This document shows, in pieces, positions 10,182 through 41,996 of a DNA stretch of 50,785 nucleotides (the first letter of the stretch is position 1; each line of letters opens with the position of its first letter). The notes below the pieces were generated by a model that was not told the DNA's origin, made no database searches, and saw only the letters and a list, made by a program, of their open reading frames with translations. The position numbers and the translations under genes were made by a program. This DNA comes from Candidatus Velthaea sp. Lineage in GTDB: Bacteria > Vulcanimicrobiota > Vulcanimicrobiia > Vulcanimicrobiales > Vulcanimicrobiaceae. The DNA lies in assembly GCA_050012475.1 (NCBI GenBank), contig JBEKHC010000043.1:1-50785 (forward strand), given 5' to 3'.

Positions 10182-10613
10182 CTAGGGGTGCTGCTCTTCG
10201 GCGTCGTGCGGGTTGCCGGGAAGGTTGCGCATCCAGTTCGCCATGTGCGCGAGCTCGGCGAGGACCTTGGAACGCGCTTCGGGATGTGCCACCGAATCTT
10301 CGAGCGCGCATCGCATGCAGTGCACCCAAGCGTCACGCTCGGCCTCGCCGATCGCGAAGCCGATATGGCGGCTGCGCAGTCGCGGAGGGCCTTTCTTCGC
10401 GGAATAGAGTTTCGGGCCGCCCAGCCACTCGCCGAGGTATTCCTTGAGCACTGCTTTGATCGTTCCGAGTTCGCGCGTGTGCATCGCCCGGATCGTCCGG
10501 GCTTCGGGAAACGTGTTCATTCGGGCGTAAAAAGCTTCCACCAATCGATCGACGCCGGCCGCTCCGCCGATGAAATCGAACAAAGAAACCTCACCCATCG
10601 TCGCTTCAATCAT
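10182..10613 (-). CDS. glbO: group II truncated (2/2) hemoglobin
   Basis: FDFIGG...RLVEAFY, WLGGPKLY, PRLRSRH..F.IG..ERDAW. Confidence 0.9.
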   Translation of the reverse strand: MIEATMGEVSLFDFIGGAAGVDRLVEAFYARMNTFPEARTIRAMHTRELGTIKAVLKEYLGEWLGGPKLYSAKKGPPRLRSRHIGFAIGEAERDAWVHCMRCALEDSVAHPEARSKVLAELAHMANWMRNLPGNPHDAEEQHP

Positions 10614-10769
10614 CTTCTCTCCCTTTGCTGCAACCTTCCATTTGGCGAACGCATGCGCGTGAATTCAGGATACCGTTCATTGACACGCAACCGAGCCGGA
10701 TGATAACGTGCCCATAGGGGGCTCGCGTTCGAATCGAGTTCCCATCCTGCATACTTTTTACCGCAGTGT

Positions 10770-10785
10770 CGGCGCGGCGTTTGCA
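10770..10785 (+). promoter_or_regulatory. sigma54-type -24/-12 promoter candidate for fdxN
   Basis: CGGCGCGGCGTTTGCA, GG-N10-GC with TTGCA, ~40 bp upstream of start. Confidence 0.5.
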
Positions 10786-10824
10786 GGTTTTCGGCGACAC
10801 GAGGCGTCCTAGGAGGGCTGCCAC

Positions 10825-11019
10825 ATGGCCTACAAGATCATTGCTTCTCAGTGCACGGTTTGCGGCGCTTGCGAATTCGATTGCCCAAATGCTGCTATTT
10901 CGCTCAAGCGCGGAATGTACACGATCAATCCCAAGCTGTGCACCGAATGCGAGGGTCATTTCGACTCGCCGCAATGTGCGACGCTCTGCCCCGTCGATAA
11001 CACCTGCGTTCCCGCCTGA
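10825..11019 (+). CDS. fdxN: 2x[4Fe-4S] ferredoxin, FdxN-like
   Basis: CxxCxxCxxxCP and CxxC-x8-CxxxCP; AGGAGG RBS. Confidence 0.9.
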
Positions 11020-11182
11020 GCGAAGCGGCCGCGCGAATCCCGCGCTGACCGATTGTTCCGTGCCGTTCGTCCGGCTTGCGAGGCAAACGACAATGAGCGC
11101 TCGTTCGTCCGACTTTGCGGACGATCTGTTCGGGCGGTTTCGCCAAAGCCGAAACGCGGCGCACGGCGCGTACGTCTGTTCA

Positions 11183-11573
11183 TTAGAGAATCCGGAGCGG
11201 GGAAAAGCCGGGGTCCCGCCCGAGCACGGTATTTACGGCCCGGCGGACCGATTCGACGGTGAGCGGTTTGGCGGCAGTCGCGGACGTCGTCCGTGCACTC
11301 GGCCACGAGCAGCACCCTCGTCTGAGGAATTTCGCGGGCGATCTCGTCGAACACACCAGCACCGTGTTCGCGCACGACCGCTGAGCCGAGCACGATGAGA
11401 TCGACTTTTCGTCCGGCGGATTTCGCGATCGCTTCGGCGACGGTAGCGATCTCATGCGTTTCATTCTCGTCATGCAGCATGAACTGGATGGCCGCGCGCG
11501 TTATCTCGTCGCTGTCGATCACGAAGATGCGTTTGTTTTCCAGGGCGCGCGAAATCTCAACTCCGATCTGCAT
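11183..11573 (-). pseudogene. nif-associated single-domain response-regulator-like protein, frameshifted by small deletion
   Basis: Receiver-like N-part (KRIFVIDSDEITR...VDLIVL...RVLLVAE) in one frame; KPLTVESVRRAVNTVLG C-terminus in another frame ending 11183; break ~11285. Confidence 0.7.
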
Positions 11574-11629
11574 ACGAAACCCTCAAGAAGCCGCTAACGC
11601 TAAAGCCATTCGGTGAGAGCAAACGCACT

Positions 11630-11707
11630 CGGCTCGCGGCCAAACCGCAAACGCCACGGCGGCTCGGCGCAGCCCAACGCAAAGGATTCGGCGCAGCCGA
11701 AATGCAC
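11630..11707. repeat. REP-like palindromic repeat (family A, degenerate tandem)
   Basis: CGGCTCGCGGCCAAACCGCAAACGCCACGG...TTCGGCGCAGCCGAA. Confidence 0.5.
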
Positions 11708-12580
11708 TTAGCCACCGGCGGCCACGGCCTGCGCGGCAACCAGGCCGCGGCTGGTCTCAAGGGCCGCCGCGAAATCCTCCAGCCGCGTATCGATCCGCTC
11801 GATGTGCTGCTCGGTCAAGAAGCGCAGTTCGTTTCTGGTCGGCTGCTCGGGAAGCACGGCCCAATGCCTGGCCGATGAGCGTTTCATGATCTGCCGCGCG
11901 AAGATCCGATCGAGCTGCGTTGCGAACCGGCAGCCGAGGAACAGGAAATGCCGTCCGGTCCGCAGCTGCTGAACTCTCTCGGGAATCGGGGTTTGGATAT
12001 CGATCTCGGTGAGCACTTCGACGAAATCGGAATCGGACACCAGAAAATTTGCGGCCGGCGAGACCGATCCGAACGGCTGGTACAGCAGCGTATCCCACGC
12101 GGCGTCATCGACCGGTCTAGCGCCGGCTTCAAAGTAGTGCACCCAGCTCCCGAAGTGCTCCGCCTGGCTGACGCCTTGCGCGCTGCCCCAGCTCGTTCGA
12201 GCGGCCAGTGCGTTCTGCGGAAGATCGTCGTACCAAGCATGAACCAGCAGCGGAAGCACCGGCAGCGCGGCCAGCAAGCGGTGCAAATCGGTTGGGGGGA
12301 CGGACGCCCGGAACGCTTCGGTCATGGCCGATTTCACGGTCCGGCGGTGTTTGAAGTTTTCGATGAACTGTGCTGCGGCGGTGAGGTTTTTACGAATCTT
12401 GTGCGGCACGGTCGCCTTTGCGGTAAGCCGCTCTACGAGCGCCAGCGGCGAAGCGGGCAGCGGGCAGTTCTCGCCCGCCAGGCTGAGAAGCCCGGGACCG
12501 AGGTAGGGCACGGCGTGCCCACGGTCGAGTGCGGCAACGATTTCGTGCATCGTTTGAGTTGGCAAGACGAGTTCAGTCAT
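11708..12580 (-). CDS. nif-associated SIR2-like (SIR2_2) protein
   Basis: VPYLGPG at N-terminus, LVSDSDF, FLFLGCRF motif. Confidence 0.8.
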   Translation of the reverse strand: MTELVLPTQTMHEIVAALDRGHAVPYLGPGLLSLAGENCPLPASPLALVERLTAKATVPHKIRKNLTAAAQFIENFKHRRTVKSAMTEAFRASVPPTDLHRLLAALPVLPLLVHAWYDDLPQNALAARTSWGSAQGVSQAEHFGSWVHYFEAGARPVDDAAWDTLLYQPFGSVSPAANFLVSDSDFVEVLTEIDIQTPIPERVQQLRTGRHFLFLGCRFATQLDRIFARQIMKRSSARHWAVLPEQPTRNELRFLTEQHIERIDTRLEDFAAALETSRGLVAAQAVAAGG

Positions 12581-12637
12581 GTTTGCTCCGGCTGCTGCGC
12601 TTTCGCAGCGGCCCTAGAGGGCTGCGCTACGTGCAGC

Positions 12638-12693
12638 CCGTCGCGTTCGGGCTTCGCCCGAGCCGCCGTCGCGTTCGGGCTTTGCCCGAGCCG
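12638..12693. repeat. 2x28-bp tandem hairpin repeat (family C)
   Basis: CCGTCGCGTTCGGGCTT(C/T)GCCCGAGCCG x2; same unit at 21106. Confidence 0.8.
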
Positions 12694-12731
12694 CCCATGG
12701 ACTTGCGGCCGATCCGTTCGCTCGCATCGCA

Positions 12732-13883
12732 TTAGTAAATCGCCGACCCGGCGCCGACGTTCGTCGACGCATCTTTCAGCGTTCCAACCACGAACGCAAT
12801 TTGGTCCTCATCGAGATGGCCATGGAACGGAAGCGCGACGGCGCGGTCGGATATTTTTTCGGCCGTGATAAAGTCGCCGCGCCGGCAGCCCATCTCGATG
12901 TAGCAGGACTGAAGGTGCAGCGGCACGCTGTACGGCGCGGCCTGGATGCCTTCGGTCTTCAGATCGTCGACGATCGCGTCGCGGCTCGAGCGCGAGAATC
13001 GCGCTCCCAGCTGAGCGAGATACAAAAACCAGTGGATCTCGTCCACGCCCGGTGCAACATACGGATCCTTGATGCCCTCGAACGACTTGACGTATTTGAA
13101 GTACAAGCGTTCGGTGCGCTTGCGGCGGGCGAGGATGCCGTCGATCCGCCGCAGCTGTTCGAGGCCCAGCGCCGCGGCCACGTCGCTCATCACCGCCGCA
13201 TAGGGCGCCGAGGCACCGGCGACCTCCGAAGACCGCTCTTTGGTGCGGTGCGTCCGCAGACCGCGCAGCTGCGAGGCGATCGTATCGTCGTCGGTTACGA
13301 TCATACCGCCCTCGCCGCACACCAGCGGCCCGGGCTGCGAGAAATCAAAGACCGCGCAATCGCCGAAGCCGCCCACGCGGCGGCCTCCGTAGACCGAGCC
13401 GATCGCCTCCGTCGAATCTTCGATCAGCACTAGGCCGCGACGCCCGGCAAGCTCGCGGAACTCATTCCACGGAGCCGGATGGCCGTTGGCGTTACCGGCA
13501 ATGATCGCGCGCGTTTTCGGCGTGATCCGGGCCTCGGCTTTCTGCGGTGAAAGCGTGCCGGCCCAGTAGTCGATATCGGCAAAGCGAGGAGTTGCGCCGG
13601 ACAGGGCGATCGCGTGCGCGGCTTCACGCCAGGAATGCGGCGAGGCGATCACTTCGTCGTCGCGCCCGATGCCGTAGGCTTTGAGCGCGAGCAGCACGCC
13701 GAGTGTCCCGCTGGAAACCGCGATCGCGTGAGCGCGGCCCGTGTACCGGGCGAACGCAGACTCGAATTCCGCGGTCGCCGGACCGCCGCCGGACAGCTGC
13801 GGTGATTGCAGGACAGCCCCGACGGCCGCCAGTTCCGCGGTCGAGATGTCGGGGTCCGAGAGCAGGATCGCGGTTTGAATCAT
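12732..13883 (-). CDS. DegT/DnrJ/EryC1/StrS-family aminotransferase-like protein
   Basis: FE..FA.Y.G..HAIAVSSGT, LIEDSTEAIGS, GEGGMIVTDD, ALPFH; usual PLP-lysine position reads SQPGPL. Confidence 0.85.
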   Translation of the reverse strand: MIQTAILLSDPDISTAELAAVGAVLQSPQLSGGGPATAEFESAFARYTGRAHAIAVSSGTLGVLLALKAYGIGRDDEVIASPHSWREAAHAIALSGATPRFADIDYWAGTLSPQKAEARITPKTRAIIAGNANGHPAPWNEFRELAGRRGLVLIEDSTEAIGSVYGGRRVGGFGDCAVFDFSQPGPLVCGEGGMIVTDDDTIASQLRGLRTHRTKERSSEVAGASAPYAAVMSDVAAALGLEQLRRIDGILARRKRTERLYFKYVKSFEGIKDPYVAPGVDEIHWFLYLAQLGARFSRSSRDAIVDDLKTEGIQAAPYSVPLHLQSCYIEMGCRRGDFITAEKISDRAVALPFHGHLDEDQIAFVVGTLKDASTNVGAGSAIY

Positions 13884-14152
13884 GGCTTCGCGGCGACCAC
13901 GACGCCGGTTGCGCGAGCCGGGTCTGCCGTGAGGCGCCAACAATGATCGCTTGCGTCAACGAGATAGAGATTAAAGCGCTCGTAGACGCGAAACGGCGGC
14001 TCGACGCCGAGATCCGACACATCGCAGCGCGTCAGCGAGAGCTCCGGAAAATCCTGACGAAAGCCGGCCAGCCAGCCGGAGCCGGCATCCGGTCCGCCCA
14101 GCGCAGCGTCGATCTTCGTCAGCGCAGCTTCGTTCAACGCCACGTCAGTCAT
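13880..14152 (-). CDS. conserved nif-associated hypothetical protein
   Basis: 90 aa ORF coupled to neighbours; LTRCD.SD...YLVD..DHCW.LT.DP..ATG.V pattern. Confidence 0.7.
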   Translation of the reverse strand: MTDVALNEAALTKIDAALGGPDAGSGWLAGFRQDFPELSLTRCDVSDLGVEPPFRVYERFNLYLVDASDHCWRLTADPARATGVVVAAKP

Positions 14153-14363
14153 CGACGACCGCGAGACGGCGCGCTTCGACGGTGATCGGCAGTGTCGTCT
14201 CCGGGCTCATGACGGGCAGTTCCAATCGCCAACCGTTTGCCAGCGTGACCAGACCGCCCCACATCTGCGGCTTTTCAATGGTCACGATCGGCTCTTCGAG
14301 GTCTTTCTTGGCAATATATGCCGATAACGCGCCCTCGGCGTTCTTGCGGATCATGACTTTCAT
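14145..14363 (-). CDS. nifT: nitrogen fixation protein NifT/FixU
   Basis: MKVMIRK...LSAYIAKKDLEEP...WGG.VTLANGW...LPITVEA. Confidence 0.9.
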   Translation of the reverse strand: MKVMIRKNAEGALSAYIAKKDLEEPIVTIEKPQMWGGLVTLANGWRLELPVMSPETTLPITVEARRLAVVDD

Positions 14364-14373
14364 GCGGTATCCT

Positions 14374-14703
14374 TCATTGCCAAAATATCCGCTCGGGGTC
14401 GTTCTTCAACGAGTCGAGCAGATCGGTAAGCCGCGCGTTCGCGGTGTGCAGTTTCCAACTCGCGCTGGCATGGTCTTTGCAGTACATCCGCCACCGTCCG
14501 GAGGGCAGCCGCTGCAGCAACGCAACGTCGACCATTCCGCCGGCTTCGTCGACGCGCCGGGAACAGCACGGGCTCTCCACGAGGATCCCGTTGGACACCA
14601 TGCGCACCGACGGGCTCACGTAACGGTAGCGCTTTCGCTTATCGATCGCGCGCTCGATCAGTCTGCGCTCGAACTCGTTGACCTCCGGCAGCTCGAGGGT
14701 CAT
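14374..14703 (-). CDS. nif-associated DUF3024-like protein
   Basis: RKRYRYVSP.V...SPCCSR.VD..GG..D.A...DPERIFWQ. Confidence 0.7.
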   Translation of the reverse strand: MTLELPEVNEFERRLIERAIDKRKRYRYVSPSVRMVSNGILVESPCCSRRVDEAGGMVDVALLQRLPSGRWRMYCKDHASASWKLHTANARLTDLLDSLKNDPERIFWQ

Positions 14704-14939
14704 GCCGGTGCGAGCTCCCCCTCGAGGCAGCCGACCACGCGATTCGCACCGAACTCGACCAGATAAACGGGCGTGTTCGATTCCGTATGCGTGCCGACTT
14801 GCACGACTTCGCCGCTGTCGCCCTCTTGCACCAGCAGTGCCTCGGGCGGGCACTCCGGGAACGAGCCGTCGTTATAGAGATCGAGAAGCGCCTGCACGCG
14901 CTGTCCCCACTGAAATTTGGGGCCGACGGGCTCCATCAT
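14700..14939 (-). CDS. nifZ: NifZ family protein
   Basis: PKFQWGQRV.A..DL.NDGSFP...G..GEVVQVG...Y.VEF...VVGC.E.EL. Confidence 0.85.
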   Translation of the reverse strand: MMEPVGPKFQWGQRVQALLDLYNDGSFPECPPEALLVQEGDSGEVVQVGTHTESNTPVYLVEFGANRVVGCLEGELAPA

Positions 14940-15250
14940 TCCGCATCCTCCTCGGTGGCGGGTTTCGCTGCACTTTCCGAAGCCCAATCGGCTTCGAGTT
15001 CTTTGCGCTTCATGCCGACGCGGTAACCCCGGGCTGGGAAGTCCACGCCGTAGATGTAGAATTGTTGCAGAAACGTCCCGATGCTGACGACGTAGCCCTC
15101 GTCGCCCTTCTTGACGAGGACGTCACCGATGTCTTTACCGGGGAACGTTCCATCGTTGCGGATCGTGCGGCGCGAGCGCACGCGCGCGCCGTAGTCGTAC
15201 ACGGGCGGCCCGTCGAGCTCGACGATGTCGCTGTCGCGCGCGATGTTCAT
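14936..15250 (-). CDS. nifZ: NifZ family protein
   Basis: IRNDGTFPG...G..LV.KG..GYV.SIGTFLQQFYIY.VDF. Confidence 0.9.
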   Translation of the reverse strand: MNIARDSDIVELDGPPVYDYGARVRSRRTIRNDGTFPGKDIGDVLVKKGDEGYVVSIGTFLQQFYIYGVDFPARGYRVGMKRKELEADWASESAAKPATEEDAE

Positions 15251-15789
15251 TCGTCTTCTCCCGCAGCCGCGGCCGCCAGGACATCGAGGAGCACGCGCGC
15301 TCCGACCTTGTCGGATGGGTCGAGTTCGAGCAGCTTGCTGACGGCTTGATGCCCCTCTTCGAGATGCCCAACCCGCATTTGCAGATACGCGTACGCCTTG
15401 AGCGTGAACAGGAAAAATCGCGGCAGCCGGGCATCGTAGCTGCTGAAGTCGGCGTCTTCCGATCGCACGTGGCGCCAGTCCGCGTGCAGACCGTTCTCGC
15501 GAGCTGCCTTGATCAAACAGATTCGCGCTATCTCCAAAGCCTCGCGCAGTCGTCCCTTGTAGAAGTAAAACCGGTATTGGGCGATCAGCACCGCTGCGTG
15601 GTCGGGCGCGAGCGCTTTGGCGTCGCGAAGATGCTGTTCGGCGATCGTGCCGTTTGCGTACGACAGCGACGCATCGTAGAGATGCCGGCGCGCCTCAAAC
15701 GGGAGATCCGCGCCCAAGAGCGCGTCGGCAAGCCGAGCACTCTCGGTCGTTCGGGGGTCCCGCAGGAGGGTCTCGCCGGCAACGGTCAC
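15247..15789 (-). CDS. nif-associated TPR-like hypothetical protein
   Basis: Helical repeat pattern, YRFYFYKGRL..AL, KLLELDPSDKVGA. Confidence 0.7.
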   Translation of the reverse strand: MTVAGETLLRDPRTTESARLADALLGADLPFEARRHLYDASLSYANGTIAEQHLRDAKALAPDHAAVLIAQYRFYFYKGRLREALEIARICLIKAARENGLHADWRHVRSEDADFSSYDARLPRFFLFTLKAYAYLQMRVGHLEEGHQAVSKLLELDPSDKVGARVLLDVLAAAAAGEDE

Positions 15790-15793
15790 CGCT

Positions 15794-16165
15794 TTATCGC
15801 TTTGCGCTCGGGAATGTCCCGAGGCTTACCAGTTCCACGGTTGGACTCGACGACGTGCCGCACGACGAACCGCTGCTCTTCGGATCGCGGAAGACGAAGC
15901 CGGACTCGGTGGGCGAGTCGGCACAGTCGATCGTCACGCCCTCCAAGAGCAGGCGGCTTTCCACCGGCAGGAAGATGTTCAAGCCGTTGTGTTTCAACAC
16001 GGCGTCGCCGGCAAGCTGTTCACTCACGGTGTCGAATTTCGCTTCGAGCCCCGAGCAGCCGCCCGGACTGACTTCCAGACGAAACCCGCCGCCGGCCGGC
16101 ACATTGGCGAACCGGATCATGCGCCGGATGAACTTCTCGGCCGCCGGCGTAATCGCAATGTTCAC
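15794..16165 (-). CDS. hesB: HesB/IscA-family Fe-S carrier
   Basis: ITPAAEKF...FRL.V.PGGCSG...GF.F.DP; start codon (GTG 16165) uncertain. Confidence 0.8.
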   Translation of the reverse strand: MNIAITPAAEKFIRRMIRFANVPAGGGFRLEVSPGGCSGLEAKFDTVSEQLAGDAVLKHNGLNIFLPVESRLLLEGVTIDCADSPTESGFVFRDPKSSGSSCGTSSSPTVELVSLGTFPSAKR

Positions 16166-16173
16166 AGCGGCAC

Positions 16174-16398
16174 TTACACCGCCGCCTGGTAACGCGGCAC
16201 CGACGTATCGATGATGCACGTGTTGTCGACCGGGCAGGCCGCCACGCATTGGGGTTCATCGAACCAGCCGATGCATTCGGTGCACTTCTTGGGGTTGATG
16301 ACGAACGTTCCGTTCTTGGGGGTGATCGCCACGTTGGGACATTCCGGCTCGCATGCGGAGCAGGCGGTGCATTGTGACGTTATGATCTTATAGGCCAT
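16174..16398 (-). CDS. fdxN: nifB-linked ferredoxin FdxN
   Basis: [12 protein letters not shown]...CTEC...QC..ACP; GGAG RBS; directly after nifB. Confidence 0.9.
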
Positions 16399-16426
16399 TG
16401 AAAAGTAACTCCTGTGTTGGTTGAAA

Positions 16427-17995
16427 TTATGCGGCGGTAAAGGCGCCCTGGCGTAGATCGGCATCGCCGCGTTCGATGTGCTCGAGTTCGCCGCGCTGCA
16501 CCTTATCGAGGTAGTGGCGGAACCACGAGATGGCCGACTGCTCGATGAACTCGAGCGCGTATTCGTCGACGGGATCGATGCCGGCCGCCTGCAGCGTGTC
16601 TTTGGGGCAGCCGCCGATCTTGGCGACGAACACGGCGTGGCAGTCGTTGATCGCGCGCACGATCGTGGCGAGACTATCTTCTTCGCCGAAGCCGCCTTGG
16701 CAGTACAGATCGACGCGCCGGTGGCCGACGAACTTCGCGCCCGCCGTACTCAGTTCGTAGACCTGAAATTCTTTGGCGTGGCCGAAGTGCTCGTTGATCC
16801 GGCCGCTGCCCTTGGTGGCGACGGCGATGAGGACCTTGATATCGCTCATCTCGCCGGCGAGCGTTTCAAGTTCGGCTTGCCGAGCCGCAACCTTCGCTTC
16901 GCGTTCGTCTTCCACTTTGAGCTGATATGCCTTGCGCGTTTGGGAGTCGTACTCGACGTCCATCGCCATGATCTTCTCGGTGCTGAATTCAGCGCTGCGA
17001 TCTTCGCCCAACAGACCCACGGCGTCCGCCCGGCATTGCCGGCAGTGACGCATCATGTTCATCTCGCCCTCGCAACTGTCTTGCAGCGCCTTGAGCTCTT
17101 GAGCCGAAGGGCCGCGTTGACCGGTCAATCCAAAGACGGTTCCGTGCTCGGGCGCCGAGATCAACGGCATGATGTTGTGAAGGAATGCGCCGCGGGATTT
17201 CACCGCTCGATTTACCTCGACCAGATGCTGGTCGTTGACGCCGGGAATCATGACCGAGTTGACTTTGCAGAGAATGCCCCGCTCCGTCAGCATCTCCAGC
17301 CCCAGCAGCTGCCGTTCGCTCAGGATCCGGGCGGCCTCCACACCCGTGTAGCGCTTGTGCTTGAAGAAGATCCAAGGGTAGATCTTGGCGCCGATCTCCG
17401 GATCGACCATGTTGATGGTGATCGTGACGTGATCGACGTTGAAGGCTTTGATCGTATCGACGTGATCGGGGAGCATTAGGCCATTTGTCGACAGGCACAG
17501 CTTGATGTCCGGCGCAGTCCTGGCAATAAGCTCGAAGGTTTTGAAGGTCTTCTCGGGATTCGCGAGCGGGTCGCCCGGACCGGCGATGCCGAGCACCGTC
17601 ATCTGCGGGATCGTGGAGGCCACGGCGAGGACTTTCTTCGCGGCCTGTTCGGGCGTCAGCTTCTCGCTCACGACACCGGGGCGTGATTCGTTGGCGCAGT
17701 CGTACTTGCGGTTACAGTAGTTACATTGAATGTTGCAGGCTGGGGCAACCGCGACGTGCATGCGGGCATAGTGATGATGCGCTTCTTCGCTGTAGCACGG
17801 GTGGTTCTTGACCTTTTCCCAAATCTCGGGAGCAAGATCGTTCGCGCCGGCGCCCGAACCGCAACTAGATTTCCCGCTGGCGCCCTTGGTGCCGCAACCT
17901 TTTTGCTCGGCGACTTTCTGCATCATTTGATCCGGCGTTGGGATCGCGTTCAGACGAACTTCTGAGAAGTTCGATAGTCCGATCAACTCTTGCAT
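16427..17995 (-). CDS. nifB: FeMo-cofactor biosynthesis radical SAM protein NifB with C-terminal NifX-like domain
   Basis: [30 protein letters not shown] motifs; GAGGAG RBS before ATG 17995. Confidence 0.97.
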
Positions 17996-18036
17996 GCTCG
18001 CTCCTCGTCTTTCATCCATACTGACATTAGCGGAAA

Positions 18037-18052
18037 TGCAAGCCACGGGCCA
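18037..18052 (-). promoter_or_regulatory. sigma54-type -24/-12 promoter candidate for nifB operon
   Basis: TGGCCCGTGGCTTGCA on minus strand, close to TGGCACG-N4-TTGCW. Confidence 0.6.
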
Positions 18053-18472
18053 TTCGGTGAATCATTTGTCCAAAGCCTCAAAACATTGTATGGGCGCTCA
18101 ATACATGTCTAATCACCTTAGGATTATTAAGCTCAATATGAACTTTATGAGGAATTGCCCCTTTTGAGCACGGGTTACGAGTGGATGGAGAAAAGTAAGT
18201 AAAATATGAATAATACGGACAATTGCACTTGTCCGACGTTGTGAATAAGCGCAGCGAGAAACCCATGGCCCGATGTCGAGTGCGCCCATGACCCATGCGC
18301 GCTATTGTATGGACATCGTACATCCCCGATCCGGCACGAGCCGAACGTTATCCGCCTTTGCGGCGGCGTTGATACGGATGCGGATGTATGGCGGCTAGAC
18401 CGCGATTTATCAGCCTCGGCCCGCTAGGGGCAGTCGAAGCCAAACCCTTCATTCCAATTTACGGAATCATAA

Positions 18473-19384
<912 letters not shown>

Positions 19385-19399
19385 CTTGCGTGCCGAGGG

Positions 19400-19439
19400 C
19401 CGTTCCGCCGCCGCCTTTTGACGGCGAACTCCGGAACGG
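19400..19439 (+). other. nifH-nifD intergenic stem-loop
   Basis: CCGTTCCG...CGGAACGG with inner stem; possible mRNA stability/processing element. Confidence 0.45.
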
Positions 19440-19473
19440 TCCGATGCGCTTCTTTTATTAGGATAGGAACGTC

Positions 19474-20976: not shown

Positions 20977-20980
20977 TCTA

Positions 20981-21084: not shown

Positions 21085-21105
21085 TCGAGGATCGACTTCG
21101 TCGAT

Positions 21106-21185: not shown

Positions 21186-21212
21186 CGTCTTAACGTTTAG
21201 AGGAGTTCTTCA

Positions 21213-30477: not shown

Positions 30478-30481
<4 letters not shown>

Positions 30482-33490: not shown

Positions 33491-33822
33491 GCCTGCGAGA
33501 TCACGTCATCGCCGCTCTGCGAACCGTTCGCGATCCGGAATTGCCGGTCAGCGTCTACGATCTCGGCCTGATATACACGATCGAGGCCGACGCCGACGGC
33601 GCGGTTGCGATCCTGATGACCTTGACCGCGCCGAACTGCCCCACGGCCGGCTCGCTTCCGGGCGAGGTGGAGCGCGCAGTGCGAGCGGTTCCCGGCGTGA
33701 CCGGCGTGCACGTGGAGTTGACGTTCGAGCCGCCGTGGACGAAAGAGCGCATGTCCCCCGCGGTCCGATTGTTTCTGGGAACCGAAGACGCGCCGAGGCC
33801 GCTCGTGAGGTTGAGTCTATGA
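33487..33822 (+). CDS. sufT: DUF59/SufT Fe-S maturation protein
   Basis: V.DPELPVS.YDLGLIY, MTLTAPNCP, EPPW...M. Confidence 0.88.
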   Translation: MSLRDHVIAALRTVRDPELPVSVYDLGLIYTIEADADGAVAILMTLTAPNCPTAGSLPGEVERAVRAVPGVTGVHVELTFEPPWTKERMSPAVRLFLGTEDAPRPLVRLSL

Positions 33823-35054: not shown

Positions 35055-36196
35055 ACGAACAGCTGCCGCGCGTCATCATCAACGACTCGACGTTACGCGA
35101 CGGCGAGCAGGCGCCGTCGGTGGCCTTTACCGCTGAGGAGAAAATTCGCATCGCGCTGGCCTTGGAGCAAGCCGGTGTCGACGAAATCGAAGCCGGCATT
35201 CCGGCGATGGGTGACGCCGAGATCGACGTGATCCGTGCGACGGGCCAATCACTGCGGCGCGCCAAGGTGATCGCGTGGGGCCGAATGACGCGAGCGGACG
35301 TCGACGCTGCCGCCCGGACCGGCGTCAAACGAGTCAACCTTTCGGTTCCGCTGTCGGACGTTCAGATTGCGGTCAAGTTCGGCAGCGACCGCGAAGACGT
35401 GCTGCGGCGCATTCGCGACGTGATTCCGTATGCGCGCGAGCGCGGCTTCGAGGTGTCGCTGGGCGGCGAAGATGCCAGCCGCGCCGACCTGGATTTCGTT
35501 CGGGCCGCGCTGCTCTGCGCGCAAGGCGCGGGCGCGGTAAAGTTCCGCTTTGCCGACACGCTCGGGATCCTGGACCCGTTCAAGACCGGCGCCGTCTTTC
35601 GTCGCTTGCGCATGTTCACGGACATGGACTTGGAATTTCATGGTCACAACGATTTTGGTCTGGCAACGGCCAACACGCTGGCCGCCATCGCGGCCGGAGC
35701 GTCGCACGCCAGTGTCTGCGTGTTAGGCTTGGGAGAACGCGCGGGGAACGCCTCGCTCGAAGAAGTGGTCGCCGGACTGATGCTGATCTACGCGCGGAAG
35801 ACAGCCGTCGATCTCGCGCGTCTCCCGGCGTTGGCCGAACTCGTCGCGGCGGCGGCGAAACGGCCGATTCCGGCCGCGCAGCCGATCGTCGGCAGTTCCG
35901 CCTTCACGCACGAATCGGGGATGCACGTCAGTGCGTTGCTCAAAAATCCGCAAGCCTACGAAGCGGTGGACCCGGGGCGGTTCGGACGCATTCGCAACTT
36001 CGTCCTGGGCAAACATTCGGGCCGAGCGTCGGTCGTGAACGCCCTCGAGGCGCTGGACCTGACCGCGGATCACGAGAGCGCCGGTCTCATCCTGGGACAG
36101 GTCCGCGCGCACGCCATACGGACCAAAGAAGCCGTCGGTCCGCTCGAACTTCGTCAATTTCACGCCAACGTCAATATCTCGGGAGCGCGTCCATGA
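35051..36196 (+). CDS. nifV: homocitrate synthase
   Basis: DSTLRDGEQ, ADTLG, HGHNDFG.ATAN, GERAGNA, HESG.H, GKHSG. Confidence 0.93.
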   Translation: MNEQLPRVIINDSTLRDGEQAPSVAFTAEEKIRIALALEQAGVDEIEAGIPAMGDAEIDVIRATGQSLRRAKVIAWGRMTRADVDAAARTGVKRVNLSVPLSDVQIAVKFGSDREDVLRRIRDVIPYARERGFEVSLGGEDASRADLDFVRAALLCAQGAGAVKFRFADTLGILDPFKTGAVFRRLRMFTDMDLEFHGHNDFGLATANTLAAIAAGASHASVCVLGLGERAGNASLEEVVAGLMLIYARKTAVDLARLPALAELVAAAAKRPIPAAQPIVGSSAFTHESGMHVSALLKNPQAYEAVDPGRFGRIRNFVLGKHSGRASVVNALEALDLTADHESAGLILGQVRAHAIRTKEAVGPLELRQFHANVNISGARP

Positions 36197-36525
36197 ACGT
36201 ACTCGATCAACTCGCAACGCTGTCGAGCGCTGAGGATTTCTTCACCTTCCTGGACCTCGGGTACGATCCGGCAGTGCTGGATGTCGTGCGGCTGCACATC
36301 CTCAAGCGGATGGGCGAATATCTGCGCAAGAACAAAGCCGCGTTGGCGTTAGCCGACGAGCAAGCCGCGCGTGCTCTGTGCCGAGCGCATCTCGAGCGCG
36401 CGTACAGCGACTTCATCGAGTCGACTCCGCTCGAACAACGCGTATTCAAAGTGCTCAAAGACGCGGTGACGCCGTCTGCGGCGCCGTTGGTACAGCTCTC
36501 CGTCGCGCCCAACGGGCAAGGATGA
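36193..36525 (+). CDS. nifW: NifW
   Basis: LSSAEDFF, V.RLHILKR, AY.DF..STP...RVFKV. Confidence 0.92.
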   Translation: MNVLDQLATLSSAEDFFTFLDLGYDPAVLDVVRLHILKRMGEYLRKNKAALALADEQAARALCRAHLERAYSDFIESTPLEQRVFKVLKDAVTPSAAPLVQLSVAPNGQG

Positions 36526-36526: not shown

Positions 36527-37396
36527 ATGGACAAGAAGCTGCATATCGTCGTCTGTCTCAAGCAAGTTCCGGACAGCGCGCAGATCCGCGTGCATCCCGT
36601 GACGAACACCATCATGCGCCAGGGCGTGCCGTCGGTCATCAATCCCTACGATCTCTTCGCGCTCGAGGAAGCGTTGCGGCTGCGGGATAAAGTCGGCGCC
36701 GCCGACGTAACCGTGCTCACGATGGGGCCGCCGATGGCGGAGGACAGTCTGCGCAAGGCGCTCGCCTACGGTGCCGATCGCGCGGTTTTGCTGACGGATC
36801 GTCAGTTTGCCGGCTCGGACACGTTGGCCACGACCTATGCGCTCTCGAGTGCGATCAGGAAGATCGGTGAGACCTGGGGTGCACCGCACGTCGTGTTCAC
36901 CGGGAAGCAAACGATCGACGGCGACACCGCGCAGGTCGGCCCGGGCATTGCGAAGCGGCTCAACTACAATGCGCTGACGTACGTTTCGCGCATTGCGTCT
37001 TTCGAGGCCGAAGCCGGAACGATCATGGTCGAACGCCGCGCCGAGGGCGGCGTCCAAGTCCTCACGACTCGCCTTCCGGTGCTCATGACGATGCTCGAAG
37101 ACACCAATGAGATGCGGCGTGGCACGATGGACGACGCGCTGCGGGCGGCCCAGGCCGAGATCGTCATGTGGAGCGCGGTCGACGCGGGCATCCCGGAACT
37201 TACCAAGTGCGGTCTGCGCGGCTCGCCGACGGTCGTGAAGAAAGTGTTCGCGCCGGCCGCGCGCGCCGAAAAGGCAGAGCAAGTTCCGGTCACCGGCCGG
37301 ACCTGGTCGGAGATGGCCGACGACATGATCAACACTATTTTCACGCGTCGCCCGGGTCTCGAGACCGAGCTTCTCGCGCGAACGGAGAACTTCTGA
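36527..37396 (+). CDS. fixA: electron transfer flavoprotein beta subunit FixA
   Basis: [35 protein letters not shown]. Confidence 0.95.
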
Positions 37397-38517
37397 TGAA
37401 CAATGCACCAGGGCCGACACCGCCACGGCCGGCCGGCGGCCGCGCGTCCAAGAAAGCGGAGCTGCCCGAACACCTCAAAGCGTACCGGCACGTCTGGGTG
37501 TTCATCGAGTACGAGCGCGGCGCAATCCACCCCGTTTCCTTGGAACTCTTGGGGGAAGGCCGCAAACTCGCCGACAAGCTCGGGGTGGAACTCGCGGGCG
37601 TGCTGATGGGTTCGTCGCATGCCGATCTGCTGCTCGCGGCGACCGACTGTTTCGAGTTCGGCGCCGACGTGGTGTATTTGGTTACCGACCCTGTCCTGGC
37701 CGATTATCGCAACGAGCCGTTCACCAAAGCGATGACGGACCTCGTGAACACCTATCAGCCGGAGATTCTGCTGCTTGGCGCGACGACGCTGGGCCGCGAT
37801 CTCGCCGGCTCGGTGGCGACCACGCTGCTCACCGGCCTCACCGCCGACACGACGGCGCTGGCGATCGATGAGGAACGGTCGCTTGCCGCGACGCGGCCGA
37901 CCTTCGGCGGGTCGCTGCTTTGCACGATCTACACGCTGAATTTCCGGCCGCAGATGGCGACCGTCCGGCCACGCGTCATGCCGATGCCGGAGCGCCAGCC
38001 GGGCCGCGTCGGACGCATCGTCGAGCAGCCGCTCAATCTGGCCGAGGACGACATCATCACCAAAGTGCTGGCGTTCCTCCCCGATCGCGATTCGGACAAG
38101 GCGCAGCTCGCGTTTGCCGACATCGTCGTGGCCGGCGGACTGGGCCTCAAATCGATGGAGAACTTTCAGCACGTCAAACACTTGGCGCAGGTCCTCGGCG
38201 GTGAATACGGGGGTTCGCGCCCCGTGGCCCACAAGGGTTGGATTCCCGCCGATCGGCAGATCGGGCAAACCGGCAAAACGATTCGGCCGAAACTCTACAT
38301 CGCTGCCGGCATCTCCGGCGCGATTCAACATCGCGTCGGCGTCGACGGCGCCGACTTGATCGTCGCGATCAACTCGGATCCCAACGCGCCGATCTTCGAC
38401 TTCGCTCACGTCGGCATCGTTGCGGACGCAGTGGAGTTCTTGCCGGTGTTCACGGATGCGCTCCGTGCACGCCTGTCACTTCACTACGTTCCGGAAACCT
38501 TTCTGGTAGCGAAATAG
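37396..38517 (+). CDS. fixB: electron transfer flavoprotein alpha subunit FixB
   Basis: [34 protein letters not shown]. Confidence 0.95.
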
Positions 38518-38525
38518 GAGCTGCG

Positions 38526-39742
38526 ATGAAAAAGAAATTCGACGCGATCGTCGTGGGAGCCGGTCCCGCGGGCAACGCGGCCGCCTATACGATGGCCAAA
38601 AGTGGACTCAACGTTCTGCAGCTCGAACGCGGCGAGTATCCGGGATCGAAGAACGTCCAAGGCGCGATTCTGTACTCCGACGCGCTCGAGAGGATCATCC
38701 CGGACTTTCGCAAGAGTTCAATGAGGAACGGCCCAACCGCTACACCATCATTCGGGCGGAGTTCGACAAGTGGTTCAGCCGCCGCGTGCGCGAAGCGGGC
38801 GCTGTCGTCTTGTGCGAAACGACGGTAACTGGCCTGATCAAAGATAAGCACGGCAAAGTGGTCGGCGTGCATACCGACCGCGCCGACGGCGATCTCTTGG
38901 CGGACGTCGTGGTTTTGGGTGAGGGCGTCAACGGTTTGGTCGGGCAATCGGCCGGACTGCGTCCGGAGCTCAAACCCAAAGAAGTCGCCCTGGCGGTCAA
39001 AGAGATGCACTTCATGCCCCAGGACGTGCTCGAGAATCGCTTCAACCTCAAGGGCGACGAGGGCGTGGTCATCGAGGCGATGGGCACGGTAAGCCCGGGT
39101 CTCTCCGGAATGGGTTTCATCTACACCAACAAAGAGTCGATCTCGGTTGGCATTGGCACCCTCGTCTCGGATTTCACCGAGTCGGGCGCGACACCGTACA
39201 GCATGATCGAGGCGTTCAAGAACCATCCCAGCATCAAGCCGCTGCTGGCCGGCTCCGAGGCGAAGGAATACTCGGCGCACCTGATTCCCGAGGGCGGGTT
39301 CAAAGCGATCCCGGATGTGTACGGCGACGGGTGGGTCATCGTCGGCGATGCCGGCCAGTTCGTGAACTCGGTGCATCGTGAAGGTTCGAACATGGCGATG
39401 ACCACCGGACTGCTCGCCGGCGAAACGATCGCGCACTTGCATCACAAACGCCAGAAGTGCAGCAAGGCCAACCTTACGATGTACAAGATGGCGTTGGATC
39501 AATCGTATGTCATGAAGGATCTCAAGAAATATAAGGACATTCCGAACTATCTCCATCAAAACAATAAGACACTGCTCGGGGTGTATCCGCGCCTGCTCGG
39601 CCAGGCCGCGCAGAATTGGTTTCGCGTCGACGGCACGGACAAACAAACGAAGGAAAACGAAATACTGGCGTCTTTCCGTAAGAGCCGATCGCTTCCAGGA
39701 TTGATCGGCGATGCATTGAAGTTTGCGAGGGCTTGGCGATGA
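38526..39742 (+). pseudogene. fixC: FixC flavoprotein, frameshifted by internal deletion at ~38711
   Basis: [13 protein letters not shown]...IIPDFR in one frame joins directly to [14 protein letters not shown]...FARAWR in another; the ~30-residue segment normally between them is absent. Confidence 0.88.
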
Positions 39743-40065
39743 ATCCGGTCGAAATACTTACTGCGCTACCAGAAAGCAGAATCGTGGTGAACGTTGAGGA
39801 CAAACTGTACACGAACCGCTATCAAGTCGATGCCGGGCGTCCGCACATAACCGTCAAGCCGCACGACAAGCCGTCGAAGGCGCTGTTGTCTTTGACGACG
39901 ACGTGTCCCGCAGGCTGCTACAGCCTCAACGATAAGGGTCACGTGGAGATTGCCGTCGACGGATGCTTGGAATGCGGCACGTGCCGCGTCGTTTGTGCCG
40001 CGACGAAGGACATCGAGTGGAGCTATCCGCGCGGCGGCTTCGGCGTTCTTTTCAAGTTCGGCTAA
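39739..40065 (+). CDS. fixX: ferredoxin-like FixX
   Basis: [41 protein letters not shown]. Confidence 0.95.
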
Positions 40066-40172
40066 GCGCGGTGCGTCAAGCCGGCGGCAGCGGAGCGTCG
40101 TAGCGTACATTTCTTCAACGGTACTTTGATTCGCGTTGTGTTCCGCTGGGGCGTCGCTTCTCAAGCGCTTCA

Positions 40173-40273
40173 GGGATGCTCCGGTTTAACCCTGGCCGAG
40201 GAGCATAGCGGCGAAGTTTGTTTAGCAAAAAAGCCGCGTAGCGACGACGTCTAAGGCTAAATCAGAGCATCCC
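40173..40273. mobile_element. MITE-like element (family B), copy 3
   Basis: GGGATGCTC...GAGGAGCATAGCGGCGAAGTTTG...AAATCAGAGCATCCC, 101 bp. Confidence 0.78.
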
Positions 40274-40557
40274 TTGATGAGAACAAGCAGTGGACAAGTG
40301 TCGATTGTCAGTTTCAACGAGCCATGCTCTGAAGTGAGGGCCGGCCTTGAAGCGTAGGCGATCGCCAAGCCGAATTACCACAATAGCTGTTGCGCTCGGT
40401 GAACCTGACCAATGTGCTGCAATTGCCATAGCCGGGACATGCAAAAAGCGCAAGAATAGCTCATCGACTTCAGCCTCAGTGCATGAAAACATGATAGTAA
40501 GTTGTGTCGGCCCGCTGGAGCCAGCCGGCATGAACTTATGCGAACAGGAGTAGACAA

Positions 40558-41463
40558 GTGGGTAACGTGACATTTTCTTCCCCCGTTTTAGCGCGGGACA
40601 TCACCGTCTATGCCGTGGCCGGCGATCGCGGCACCATTCTGGCAGTGGCGAAGGAACACAAGATTCCGATTCCGTTCGATTGTCAGGACGGCGAATGCGG
40701 TTCGTGTCTGGTCGAGGTCAAACACCTCTCGGACACCAAGTGTGCCATCGCGCTTACCGAGAAGGAAAAAGAGATGCTCCGCCAGCTCGGGAAGATCACG
40801 CGCAAAGAAATAGAGAATGCGGAAGTCAACGACATGCCGCCGCGTTACCGCTTGGCTTGTCAGTGTTTCGTGCGCAACGAAGATATCATGGTCAACTTCG
40901 TGGGCGACGAAACGCTGCCCGCCCAGAAGCCGCATCTCACGCCCGCGGCAAAGATCTTCAAAGGCGGCCTCAAGCCCACGTCGATCGACGATTTCCTCGG
41001 CTACGCCGTGAAGGTTGAAGAAGACGCGGCGCTCCATTTCGAGAAAATGTCTGCGGCGATGGAGGAATGCGGAAACCACGAGGTCGCCAAGCTCTTTGCT
41101 CAGCTGGGCAGCTTTTCGCGCTTGCACTTGGCCGAGGCGCAGCGACGCGCGGGCGCGATCGACGCCGCGGTGACCGTTCCGCCCGACTACGTTTGGCCGG
41201 AGCACGCGACTCCCGAGCGCACGTCTTTCTTGGCCGGTGATCCGCACCTGTCGCGCCTGGACGCCCTGCGCGCGGCGCTCGTCGGTGAAGAGCGCGGCTA
41301 CGAGTTTTACTACGCAGTTGCGGGCACGACGAGCAATACCGATATCCGCGACCTTGCACTCGAATTCGTCAAAGAGGAAGCCGAACACGTCGCGGTGCTC
41401 AAAGCCTGGATCACCCGCGAGGAATGGGCCTTGAAGACCGCGCAAGTGACACAACTTGTTTAG
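40558..41463 (+). CDS. FeSII (Shethna protein II)-like [2Fe-2S] domain fused to rubrerythrin/ferritin-like domain
   Basis: FSSP...AVAG.R.T.L..A....IPF.CQDG.CGSCLV...LT.KE...GK...PP.YRLACQ matches the recalled Azotobacter FeSII pattern; C-terminal helical bundle with E-rich motifs and EEAEH. Confidence 0.8.
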   Translation: MGNVTFSSPVLARDITVYAVAGDRGTILAVAKEHKIPIPFDCQDGECGSCLVEVKHLSDTKCAIALTEKEKEMLRQLGKITRKEIENAEVNDMPPRYRLACQCFVRNEDIMVNFVGDETLPAQKPHLTPAAKIFKGGLKPTSIDDFLGYAVKVEEDAALHFEKMSAAMEECGNHEVAKLFAQLGSFSRLHLAEAQRRAGAIDAAVTVPPDYVWPEHATPERTSFLAGDPHLSRLDALRAALVGEERGYEFYYAVAGTTSNTDIRDLALEFVKEEAEHVAVLKAWITREEWALKTAQVTQLV

Positions 41464-41501
41464 CGCAGCATCAACGTTCGGCCGCCCCGCGAGGCAACCG
41501 T

Positions 41502-41996
41502 ATGCAATCGATTGAGGAATTTCTCGCCTATGCGATCCATCTCGAACGCGAGGCAATGGACCGTTTCGGCGAACTCGCCGACTCGATGGCCACCTATGGC
41601 AACGCCGAAGTGGGAAAGCTGTTTCGGCGTCTGTCGGAATATTCGCGGCTTCATCTTGCGGAGGCCCAAGCGCGCGCCGGATATCGCGAAATTCCGGAAC
41701 TGCGGCCCGACGAATTCAATTGGCCCGATTTGGAAAGCCCGGAGGCGGCGGCCATCTGGGCCGCGGATCCCTTCATCGGCCGGGAGCAGGCATTGCACAT
41801 TGCCCTGGCGGCTGAGGCGGCCGGTCTTGCGTACTACCAGAGCGTTTTCGACACGGCGACCGATCCGGAGATCAAGGTGCTGGCAAAGGAATTCGTCGAG
41901 GAGGAAAGCGCTCACGTCGCCGAGCTGGAACGATGGATCGCCCACCACAAGGCCGGCAAAAAGCTGCCCGTCGACGGAAAGCTGCTCGCGCGCTAA
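41502..41996 (+). CDS. rubrerythrin/ferritin-like protein
   Basis: Homologous to C-domain of preceding gene (FLAYA...E...SRLHLAEAQ...WP...PE...EFVEEESAH). Confidence 0.85.
   Translation: MQSIEEFLAYAIHLEREAMDRFGELADSMATYGNAEVGKLFRRLSEYSRLHLAEAQARAGYREIPELRPDEFNWPDLESPEAAAIWAADPFIGREQALHIALAAEAAGLAYYQSVFDTATDPEIKVLAKEFVEEESAHVAELERWIAHHKAGKKLPVDGKLLAR

Follow-up and report, generated by a model that had tools for sequence, protein, structure and literature searches.

A Composite Nitrogenase Island with a Probably Transferred, Alphaproteobacteria-Type Core in a Vulcanimicrobiaceae Genome

Introduction

The stretch of DNA analyzed here, called the window throughout, is the whole of contig C43 (JBEKHC010000043.1; 50,785 nucleotides, 50.8 kb) from G000, a metagenome-assembled Candidatus Velthaea sp. 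genome (MAG) of 5.36 Mb in 204 contigs that is 93.8% complete with 5.3% contamination. The GC content of the window is 62.1%, the contigs of the genome averaging 63.8% (standard deviation 1.9). The window holds a complete molybdenum-nitrogenase (Mo-nitrogenase, nif) regulon at 10185–41993, a 31.8-kb core within an inserted segment of about 36 kb that runs from roughly 7.1 to 43.2 kb. We consider it quite probable that this is a resident composite nif island of a Vulcanimicrobiaceae genome, whose Alphaproteobacteria-type core would have been acquired by inter-phylum transfer. The horizontal spread of nif clusters is already a known phenomenon; what is new is the mosaic construction of the island, with native nifI and oxidoreductase genes at its left end and a host-type sufR at its right end, and the loss of the sigma-54 promoter of nifH in a lineage apparently without sigma-54.

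Sequences and Searches

Genes were called by Pfam scans over all plausible open reading frames (ORFs) of the window, and NCBIfam was used for its equivalog cut-offs. Relatives of NifD were collected by a scan of one genome per species, which found 588, and the comparisons with named loci use the best 80 of these 588. The phylum sample comprises 401 Eremiobacterota genomes, that is, G000 and 400 others. Among them, G001, G002, and G003 belong to the same genus as G000; G231 (97% complete) belongs to another genus of the same family; and G007, G152, G017, and G155 are Vulcanimicrobiaceae genomes with nif loci of the nifI type. L036–L109 denote named nif loci, L156 and L165 metagenome contigs, and X1, X3, X4, and X5 public sequencing runs. 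X1 may be the source sample, and the other three runs belong to other studies.

Genes of the Island

The inserted segment carries the following features, identified by Pfam unless stated otherwise.

7117–7700, minus strand: sufU_L, an extra, diverged host sufU (ORF 7179–7700) with a repB repeat downstream; left end of the inserted segment
7810–9174, minus strand: GltD-like pyridine-nucleotide oxidoreductase (Pfam, NCBIfam)
9246–9623, minus strand: PII_a, nifI2-like (Pfam P-II domain)
9623–10009, minus strand: PII_b, nifI1-like (Pfam P-II domain)
10185–18046, minus strand: module 1, with glbO, orf205, SIR2, DegT, nifT, DUF3024, two nifZ, orf180, hesB, fdx, and nifB
10185–10613, minus strand: glbO (Bac_globin)
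11711–12580, minus strand: SIR2 (SIR2_2)
12735–13943, minus strand: DegT
14148–14363, minus strand: nifT
14703–14987 and 14939–15250, minus strand: two nifZ
16430–18046, minus strand: nifB
18047–18484: divergent intergenic region between nifB and nifH
18485–27725, plus strand: nifH, nifD, nifK, nifE, nifN, nifX, DUF269, a Rop-like gene, fdxB, and nifQ (Pfam, NCBIfam)
18485–19381, plus strand: nifH
19474–20973, plus strand: nifD
21213–22769, plus strand: nifK
26743–27036, plus strand: fdxB
27048–27725, plus strand: nifQ
27930–36522, plus strand: iscA, sufB, sufC, sufD, sufS, sufU, a sufT-like gene, nifS, nifV, and nifW (NifW by NCBIfam)
36527–40062, plus strand: fixA, fixB, fixC (ATG at 38526), and fixX
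40558–41993, plus strand: a fusion of 2Fe-2S ferredoxin and rubrerythrin, then another rubrerythrin-like gene, with which the proteobacterial-type core ends on the right
42546–43230, plus strand: sufR_dup, an additional SufR-like regulator of host type, which closes the inserted segment on the right

Every gene that a first-pass annotation had named from the letters of the sequence is present in the window by Pfam and NCBIfam, and the four NifH motifs that it quoted lie at residues 22, 113, 121, and 140. The NCBIfam equivalog cut-offs are exceeded by NifH (456 over 394), by NifD of the Mo type (874 over 654), and by NifK (862 over 427), while the models for V- and Fe-only nitrogenases score far under theirs. 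All six genes of the minimal set, nifH, nifD, nifK, nifE, nifN, and nifB, are present (Pfam), the set being the criterion that PMC11180709 cites from Dos Santos et al. 2012. The best match of NifD in the PDB is the 5koh group (885 bits), and the motifs around CAYAG, GPVGCG, SECPIG, HCYRS, and MHSWDY are kept with respect to a chain of that group; NifH contains VCGGFAMP. We take the NifD motifs to be those of the P-cluster cysteines and of the Cys/His ligands of the iron-molybdenum cofactor (FeMo-co), and those of NifH to be the P-loop and two cluster cysteines. Pfam scans of the window found neither nifA nor a full-length nifU.

From this gene content, NifHDK is predicted to reduce N2, with FeMo-co built by NifB, NifEN, NifX, NifQ, and NifV. 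Fe-S clusters would be supplied by NifS, IscA, and the SUF system, and low-potential electrons would come from FixABCX with the ferredoxins. GlbO and the rubrerythrins may give protection from oxygen.

The fixC gene stands in two frames in the window, with an 88-nt gap at 38711/38712 relative to G231, where fixC is a single frame. In contigs of X1 and X4, two runs that belong to two different studies, precisely this position holds 88 additional letters. The break is an assembly fault or a rare or minority deletion variant; it does not mark a dead gene, because the contigs of both runs carry the 88 nt and the gene of G231 is in one frame. A reading of fixC as a pseudogene was ruled out on the same 88 nt.

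Host and Insertion Site

The island is bordered on both sides by host genes (Pfam):

4575–5681, minus strand: corA, left flank
5793–7103, plus strand: gene with a yip1 domain, left flank
43233–50687: right flank, with orf134, sufU, sufS, sufD, and sufC on the minus strand, sufR and a NifU_N gene on the plus strand, and an alpha/beta hydrolase and a metallo-beta-lactamase (MBL)-fold gene on the minus strand

These flanks are syntenic with all three genomes of the same genus at 73–81% nucleotide identity. On the left, corA gives 72.7–72.9% with G001 and G002, and corA together with yip1 gives 74% with G003; on the right, the identity is 78–81%, in colinear order with contigs G002:C24 and G003:C46, where the matching genes come directly after corA or corA-yip1. 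All three congeners thus present an empty site, in which corA (in G003 with yip1 and orf134) leads straight into sufU-sufS-sufD-sufC and nif genes are absent between, the contig of G001 stopping within sufS. None of the three has a NifD.

The flank genes of the first-pass annotation, CorA, SufR, and SufS-SufU, are in place, with two SufR-like genes (Pfam, NCBIfam). CorA has 2180 relatives at E ≤ 1e-40, and names were read among the 120 matches listed. Of the five named rows, three are Vulcanimicrobiaceae, one is Ca. Velthaea, and one, at 52%, is Chloroflexi; four of these five names fall in the family or genus of the host. NCBI taxonomy places Vulcanimicrobiaceae and Ca. Velthaea in Vulcanimicrobiota (= Eremiobacterota), kingdom Bacillati. 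The CorA names and the synteny with the three congeners bear out the Eremiobacterota host that had been suggested as a possibility, and they support assignment to Vulcanimicrobiaceae; the genome comes from peat or soil.

The host probably is, or descends from, an anoxygenic phototroph. G000 encodes a BchL (352 bits, exceeding its cut-off of 345) as well as BchX-like (300 bits) and BchC-like (249 bits) proteins, both under their cut-offs. The bch genes lie on other contigs of the genome, at C54:27552–28406 (L002 1474–2328) and on C88 (L003 29–2505), and are consistent with the phototrophs of the family.

Mosaic Ends and Other Carriers

The two ends of the inserted segment differ in kind from its core. 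In the 80 named loci, the oxidoreductase, the PII pair, and the tested flank genes have no match, bar weak ones of suf and NifU_N. Relatives of the left end are found instead in the family's own nif loci: the oxidoreductase shares 67–82% amino acid identity with the genes of G007 and G017, the nifI2-like PII_a 48–63%, and the nifI1-like PII_b 69–71%. In those two genomes, the order is nifH-PII-PII-nifD-nifK-nifE-nifN-nifB-nifV. In the window, two PII-family genes likewise adjoin nitrogenase genes, as in loci regulated by NifI. They do not stand between nifH and nifD: the pair is 8.5 kb from nifH, beside glbO and outside the imported core. The oxidoreductase alone is no marker of nif loci, because 77 of 80 metagenome loci with its relatives have no nif or PII neighbor (50%-coverage filter). 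Separately, the metagenome contigs L136–L140 carry relatives of the oxidoreductase at 80–82%, with no nif or PII gene in stretches of 2.9–21 kb.

The outermost genes are diverged copies of host genes. The left-end sufU_L shares 79.8% nucleotide identity with the sufU region resident at 43606–44053, and a search of the congeners gave a single sufU match at the locus; sufR_dup is 81.7% identical to the resident sufR (47597–48239), and its best NCBIfam family is SufR_cyano, under the cut-off. These identities equal the divergence between the flanks and the congeners. The comparisons indicate that the island is a mosaic, its left end deriving from the native nifI-type nif loci of the family and its right end being a host-type sufR. 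The immediate donor of the G000 copy was probably another member of Eremiobacterota, via recombination at the suf locus, because both island ends bear host-type sufU and sufR copies of about 80% identity; given these copies, a direct transfer from a proteobacterium to G000 was judged less likely. The end copies may alternatively stem from an old tandem duplication of the suf locus. As a separate observation, a second locus in G002 (C15:70351–74349) matches the sufS-sufD-sufC-sufR flank of the window at 76% identity, and therefore duplicated suf loci occur in the genus.

The same mosaic is found elsewhere in the family. A NifD of any type is present in 6 of the 401 phylum genomes, G000 included, in agreement with the rarity of diazotrophy in the phylum supposed at the outset, and the type of the window in only two of them. 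The second, G231, carries on a 70-kb contig a colinear island of about 80% nucleotide identity that extends from the oxidoreductase to sufR, in which it likewise ends, without glbO and DegT. Protein identities to G231 are 97% for NifH, 92% for NifD, 87% for NifK, and 89% for NifE, and all island genes except fixC align over most or the full length. The rubrerythrin genes are 80–84% identical to those of G231 and 58–66% to those of L101, L073, and L109. The neighborhood differs between the two genomes, because the flanks of the G231 island match scattered contigs of G000, at roughly 57–79% amino acid identity. A third variant, L165, matches the window at 98% for NifT, 90–92% for NifZ, 87% for SIR2, and 91% for the oxidoreductase; the oxidoreductase and the PII pair occur in both G231 and L165. 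An identical piece in L156 bridges glbO to the PII pair.

Three database records touch on these carriers. The exact NifD sequence of the window is also on record on a contig of 480,680 bp, and a contig of 385,969 bp has a NifD of the same 90% cluster. Protein P0122, an 816-aa gene call on a 3.69-Mb contig (NCBI, ENA) in which NifH and NifD domains are fused, shares 91% identity with the window NifD; it may come from a closed genome with a related island or be a read-through or gene-calling artefact.

Residence of the Island in the Genome

Three repeat families tie the island to its genome:

7704–7811, 20976–21079 (nifD-nifK spacer), and 40172–40278 (after fixX): repA, a near-perfect hairpin of 104–108 nt, similar to miniature inverted-repeat transposable elements or repetitive extragenic palindromes (MITE/REP-like)
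within 7117–7700, downstream of sufU_L: repB
12630–12700 and 21100–21150: repC, inside the island

The occurrence of flank-type repeats within the island, described in the first-pass annotation, was confirmed by locating all three there. They are present on 13–43 other contigs of G000, and repA alone gives 54–69 matches on 38–43 contigs. It folds as a long hairpin, with z-scores of −12.6, −5.0, and −5.5 for the three window copies, and its copy between nifD and nifK stretches this spacer to 236 nt, versus roughly 50 nt in G231. Both repA and repB also match the congeners G003 and G002, while none of the three families has a match in the 80 named nif loci, in the G231 contig, or in the G007 and G017 loci.

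Sequence that is near-identical to the window over 36–46 kb was found in 20 runs of 15 studies of soil and peat, seven of these runs holding at least half of the sampled words. The right junction is tiled over 40009–44929 by contigs of X1 (40009–43442, 3434 nt, and 43610–44929), X3 (43075–43669), and X5 (43602–44732), the interval 43442–43610 between the two X1 contigs being a repeat region. The depth of X1 is about 7–10 over most of island and flank alike (range 3.2–18.2). Read coverage and linkage, which had been proposed as a check, show similar depth on both sides and contigs that cross the right junction. Moreover, the ratio of nonsynonymous to synonymous substitution rates (dN/dS) against G231 is 0.02–0.24 at dS 0.58–1.04 for 13 genes of the island core, and 0.33 for the oxidoreductase. 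The low dN/dS at such dS means that the island genes have long been under selection inside the family. Taken whole, the island is also unremarkable in tetranucleotide composition, at the 73rd percentile of the 10-kb chunks of G000. With repeats in the nif spacers, an unremarkable overall composition, carriers in G231 and L165, a tiled right junction, and purifying selection, the island is truly resident in the host genome, as had been proposed.

A binning or assembly artefact, in which a proteobacterial nif contig, or a chimera formed at conserved suf genes, was misplaced in an Eremiobacterota MAG, has to be weighed at this point. Such an error could be imagined in a MAG of 204 contigs with some contamination, all the more so when the window is an entire contig, suf genes lie in both island and flank, and one assembly fault, the 88-nt fixC gap, is known. 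Composition gives a further hint in this direction, as the nifHDKENX chunk at 17.7–27.7 kb is a tetranucleotide outlier (98.6th percentile), the only one, the whole island being at the 73rd percentile of the 10-kb chunks of G000. However, both flanks are syntenic with the congeners, genus-specific repeats sit inside the nif spacers, and G231 and L165 carry the same mosaic with nifI and sufR ends of Eremiobacterota type. The X1 contig over 40009–43442, with the X3 and X5 pieces, leads from the island to 44732, and the suf genes of island and flank share 67–68% nucleotide identity, too low to mislead an assembler. We regard an artefact as extremely improbable and as largely refuted.

Origin of the Core

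The best 80 of the 588 NifD relatives share 83–90% identity with the window protein and comprise 79 from Pseudomonadota and one from a MAG labelled Terracidiphilus (Acidobacteriota). The best named locus gives 92% for NifH, 90% for NifD, 86% for NifE, 85% for NifB, and 84% for NifK, and, further out in the core, 67% for DegT, 65% for SIR2, and 55% for GlbO; the genes from glbO to nifS all have matches in the 80 named loci. Both modules have the gene order seen in L036 (Pseudolabrys), L038, L040, and L041, with the nifB...glbO module inverted in the window; the genes of this module 1 are 52–85% identical to those of the same four loci. The island SufB is 72% identical to the SufB of a Parvibaculum nif locus versus 44% to the other SufB of G000 (C96). 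Identity of NifD falls from 90% to Pseudolabrys or Telmatospirillum to 71–75% to Serratia, Sinorhizobium, and Dechloromonas, and to 42–43%, with an insertion, to the four other family genomes. By this placement (83–92% to Pseudomonadota versus 37–43% to the family's other NifD), the enzyme is assigned to Group I. The comparison gene by gene thus sets the core with Pseudomonadota loci of the same order, and the proteobacterial type recognized in the first-pass annotation is upheld.

In the trees, the window and G231 form a pair at 99–100% support in the Shimodaira–Hasegawa-like approximate likelihood-ratio test (SH-aLRT), inside clades rich in Alphaproteobacteria. These were a NifD tree of 86 rows; a NifHDK tree of 42 rows chosen from 60 with all three proteins, in which the pair is in a 23-row clade at 99%; and a NifD tree of 52 rows that also takes in Sinorhizobium, Serratia, and Dechloromonas-type sequences. 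The outgroups were distant nifI-type NifD on branches of about 5 substitutions per site. Other sources gave no nearer ones: in a plasmid collection, Group I NifD is proteobacterial only, Nostoc matches being under 60% identity and lost at E 1e-140, and in a representative library at 50% identity, Group I collapses to one full-length protein (Dechloromonas).

Several points weigh against a transferred, resident island and should be kept together. G000 is a MAG with 5.3% contamination, and a search of the genome recovered no 16S rRNA gene. The composition of the island is mostly host-like, only the nifHDKENX chunk deviating. Pfam and tRNA scans detected no integrase, tRNA, or attachment (att)-like site at the island ends, which are diverged gene copies (sufU_L, sufR_dup) rather than short att repeats; the sole integrase-like ORF is a fragment at 3999–4442, 2.7 kb outside the island, and Rfam and tRNA scans of the window found nothing. 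Independent contigs bridge the right junction, whereas the joints between yip1 and sufU_L and between sufU_L and the oxidoreductase rest on this assembly. The approximately unbiased (AU) test does not reject the grouping of window and G231 with the distant outgroup (p-AU 0.687 and 0.638), the constrained trees surpassing the quick free trees by 6.2 and 5.3 log-likelihood units. The sequences obtained include no closer non-proteobacterial Group I outgroup, and the trees alone would allow the Eremiobacterota pair to be sister to all proteobacterial sequences.

This last possibility amounts to a Group I cluster that is ancestral in Eremiobacterota, inherited vertically with massive loss, from whose lineage the proteobacterial clusters would descend. 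The AU tests allow the pair at the root side, the island composition is mostly host-like, and dS of 0.6–1.0 between two genera speaks for a long stay in the family. On the other hand, only 2 of 401 phylum genomes have this type, versus 588 relatives from named genomes, the best 80 being nearly all from Pseudomonadota, and NifD follows the identity gradient given above, highest to Pseudolabrys and Telmatospirillum. Four other family members carry a nifI-type nitrogenase, the nifI and oxidoreductase genes of which adjoin the island, and the insertion sites differ between G000 and G231. Minimum-variance rooting of the ingroup sets the Beta group apart from all others at the root, a root on the Eremiobacterota stem coming 38th of 78. 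An ancestral cluster is, in our opinion, highly unlikely. The inter-phylum transfer proposed in the first-pass annotation is supported, and its direction would be from Pseudomonadota to Eremiobacterota; because outgroup rooting leaves the root undecided, the direction rests on distribution, the identity gradient, the family's own nitrogenase, and context.

Regulation

The core would have come from relatives that control nif by NifA and sigma-54, and its present lineage likely has no sigma-54. No Sigma54_DBD domain was found in 41 relatives, G000 included, or in five more entries, G231 among them, of which three are new genomes, and the control was positive in 4 of 14 known genomes; as G000 is 94% complete, absence of rpoN and nifA is likely, short of proof. 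Sigma54_activat gives only generic matches of 25–40 bits, of the same kind as in all 14 controls. The element TGGCAC-N5-TTGCW occurs 104–193 bp upstream of nifH in 38 of the 59 named loci versus neither of the two Eremiobacterota copies, and no −24/−12 element of sigma-54 lies within 400 bp upstream of nifH in the window or in G231. Across the window, the sigma-54 motif occurs 19 times, about as often as the 18.2 expected by chance. A match with one mismatch at 18037–18052 was rejected as a promoter, as it overlaps the start of nifB. The sigma-54 nifH promoter of the proteobacterial relatives is missing here. Because the lineage seems to be without sigma-54, promoters of the donor's NifA/sigma-54 type could not work in this host, and transcription must then run from host-type promoters.

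Candidates for such control sites exist. The nifB-nifH spacers of the window (18047–18484) and of G231 (C50 40577–41022) share conserved blocks: two copies of TGAATAA spaced by about 33 nt, and a block of 19 nt, GGCCCGATGTCGAGTGCGC. Such blocks may be operator or promoter elements for a host regulator.

An island that is resident but silent or decaying, cut off from sigma-54/NifA control and fixing no N2, would account for the lack of sigma-54, of a convincing NifA, and of a −24/−12 element, as well as for the fixC broken in this assembly. Against it, alignments to G231 cover most or the whole of every other island gene, dN/dS is 0.02–0.24 over dS of 0.6–1.0, contigs of two other runs carry an intact fixC, and the conserved spacer blocks suggest retained control sites. 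We think that silence is unlikely and that this is a real, resident, and apparently functional proteobacterial-type nif island fused to native nif remnants.

Assembly History and Comparison with Known Systems

The history that best joins these results would begin in an ancestor within the family, where the imported core would have been joined to a nifI1-nifI2-oxidoreductase remnant of a nifI-type (Cluster III-like) locus and to a host-type sufR. The mosaic would then have spread or persisted in at least three lineages, those of G000, G231, and L165. In G000, it would have been seated in the suf locus between yip1 and orf134-sufU, and genus-specific hairpin repeats would have colonised it afterwards. 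With sigma-54 lacking, transcription would start from host-type promoters, and the retained NifI pair is predicted to give, probably, an ammonium switch-off.

The nearest known systems are alphaproteobacterial Mo-nitrogenase regulons, those of the Pseudolabrys MAG L036, of the uncultured Alphaproteobacteria L038 and L040, of Rhodomicrobium (L043), and of Telmatospirillum siberiense (L088). The window shares with them nifB-fdx-hesB-orf-nifZ-nifZ-nifT-DegT-SIR2 and nifHDKENX-DUF269-Rop-fdxB-nifQ-iscA-nifS in the same order. It differs from them in that its host is of another phylum and its first module is inverted; it has no sigma-54 promoter, nifA, or full-length nifU, rpoN not having been found in G000; it has a sufBCDSU-sufT block with a SufU of Terrabacteria style; and its ends carry the nifI1-nifI2 pair and sufR.

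The nifI-type Eremiobacterota loci, those of Ca. Lamibacter sapmiensis and of G007, G152, G017, and G155, belong to the same family and have a homologous PII pair and oxidoreductase (48–82%). Their nitrogenase is of a different group, as the window NifD is 37–43% and the NifH 65–66% identical to theirs; in them, the PII pair lies between nifH and nifD, whereas that of the window is outside the core. In the 20-kb stretches of these loci, fixABCX, nifQ, nifW, nifZ, nifT, nifX, and glbO have no match. Ca. Lamibacter sapmiensis has a Cluster III nifH with nifI1/nifI2, and a Cluster III/IV MAG was called the first link of Eremiobacterota to nif (Pessi et al. 2024, PMC11180709).

The pairing of NifI with a nifHDKENX-type operon has a counterpart in Thermodesulfovibrio, for which excerpts of Hisano et al. 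2025 (PMC12501866) describe nifHDKENXIIB with nifA. The novelty of the pairing is tempered by this, because NifI, nifHDKENX, and NifA are known together there. By the same excerpts, Thermodesulfovibrio is an anaerobic member of Nitrospirota with nifI inside the operon and NifA present, unlike the window, in which nifI would be a leftover outside an imported cluster of aerobe type, in a lineage apparently without sigma-54.

A proteobacterial-type NifD in the bin of another phylum is also seen in L037 (89% to the window) and in P0179, a protein of a MAG labelled Nitrospirae (84%). L037, the record CAZMHC010000050.1 of a MAG titled “uncultured Terracidiphilus sp.”, clusters close to the Eremiobacterota pair; unlike the window, it keeps a sigma-54 element at −176 of nifH. 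It may represent a further transfer between phyla or a contig binned in error.

A search of the full-text literature returned no report of a Cluster I/proteobacterial-type nitrogenase in Eremiobacterota, and the excerpts available of PMC11437008, PMC13274591, PMC13594681, and PMC9938248 contain nothing on Cluster I nif in this phylum. The island adds an aerobe-type nitrogenase to a phylum with only Cluster III/IV nif in print (PMC11180709). The nitrogen input of peatland and tundra is usually apportioned by nifH sequence, and the window NifH would be booked as alphaproteobacterial, because its identity reaches 92% with Rhodomicrobium and 91% with Xanthobacter sequences; the expectation that nifH surveys would misassign it holds, and this diazotroph would be credited to the wrong group. 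Moreover, the island is a natural experiment in which a regulon dependent on sigma-54 and NifA appears re-wired in a host without sigma-54, and a test case of whether NifI regulates a Group I enzyme. The two questions bear on efforts to equip new hosts with nitrogen fixation by engineering.

A bolder version, which we put forward tentatively and hold to be somewhat doubtful, is a xenologous replacement in an aerobic, bch-bearing member of Eremiobacterota. The nifI-type enzyme would have been displaced in situ by an oxygen-adapted alphaproteobacterial regulon, with NifI1/NifI2 kept as the switch of a foreign enzyme type and promoters rebuilt without sigma-54. The organism might then be a widespread, unrecognised peatland diazotroph whose nifH reads are booked as Alphaproteobacteria.

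Outer Part of the Window

The first 4500 positions of the window hold a DUF4238 gene, unnamed ORFs, and the phage-integrase fragment at 3999–4442. This part is a second variable region beside corA, because it is unmatched in the three congeners.

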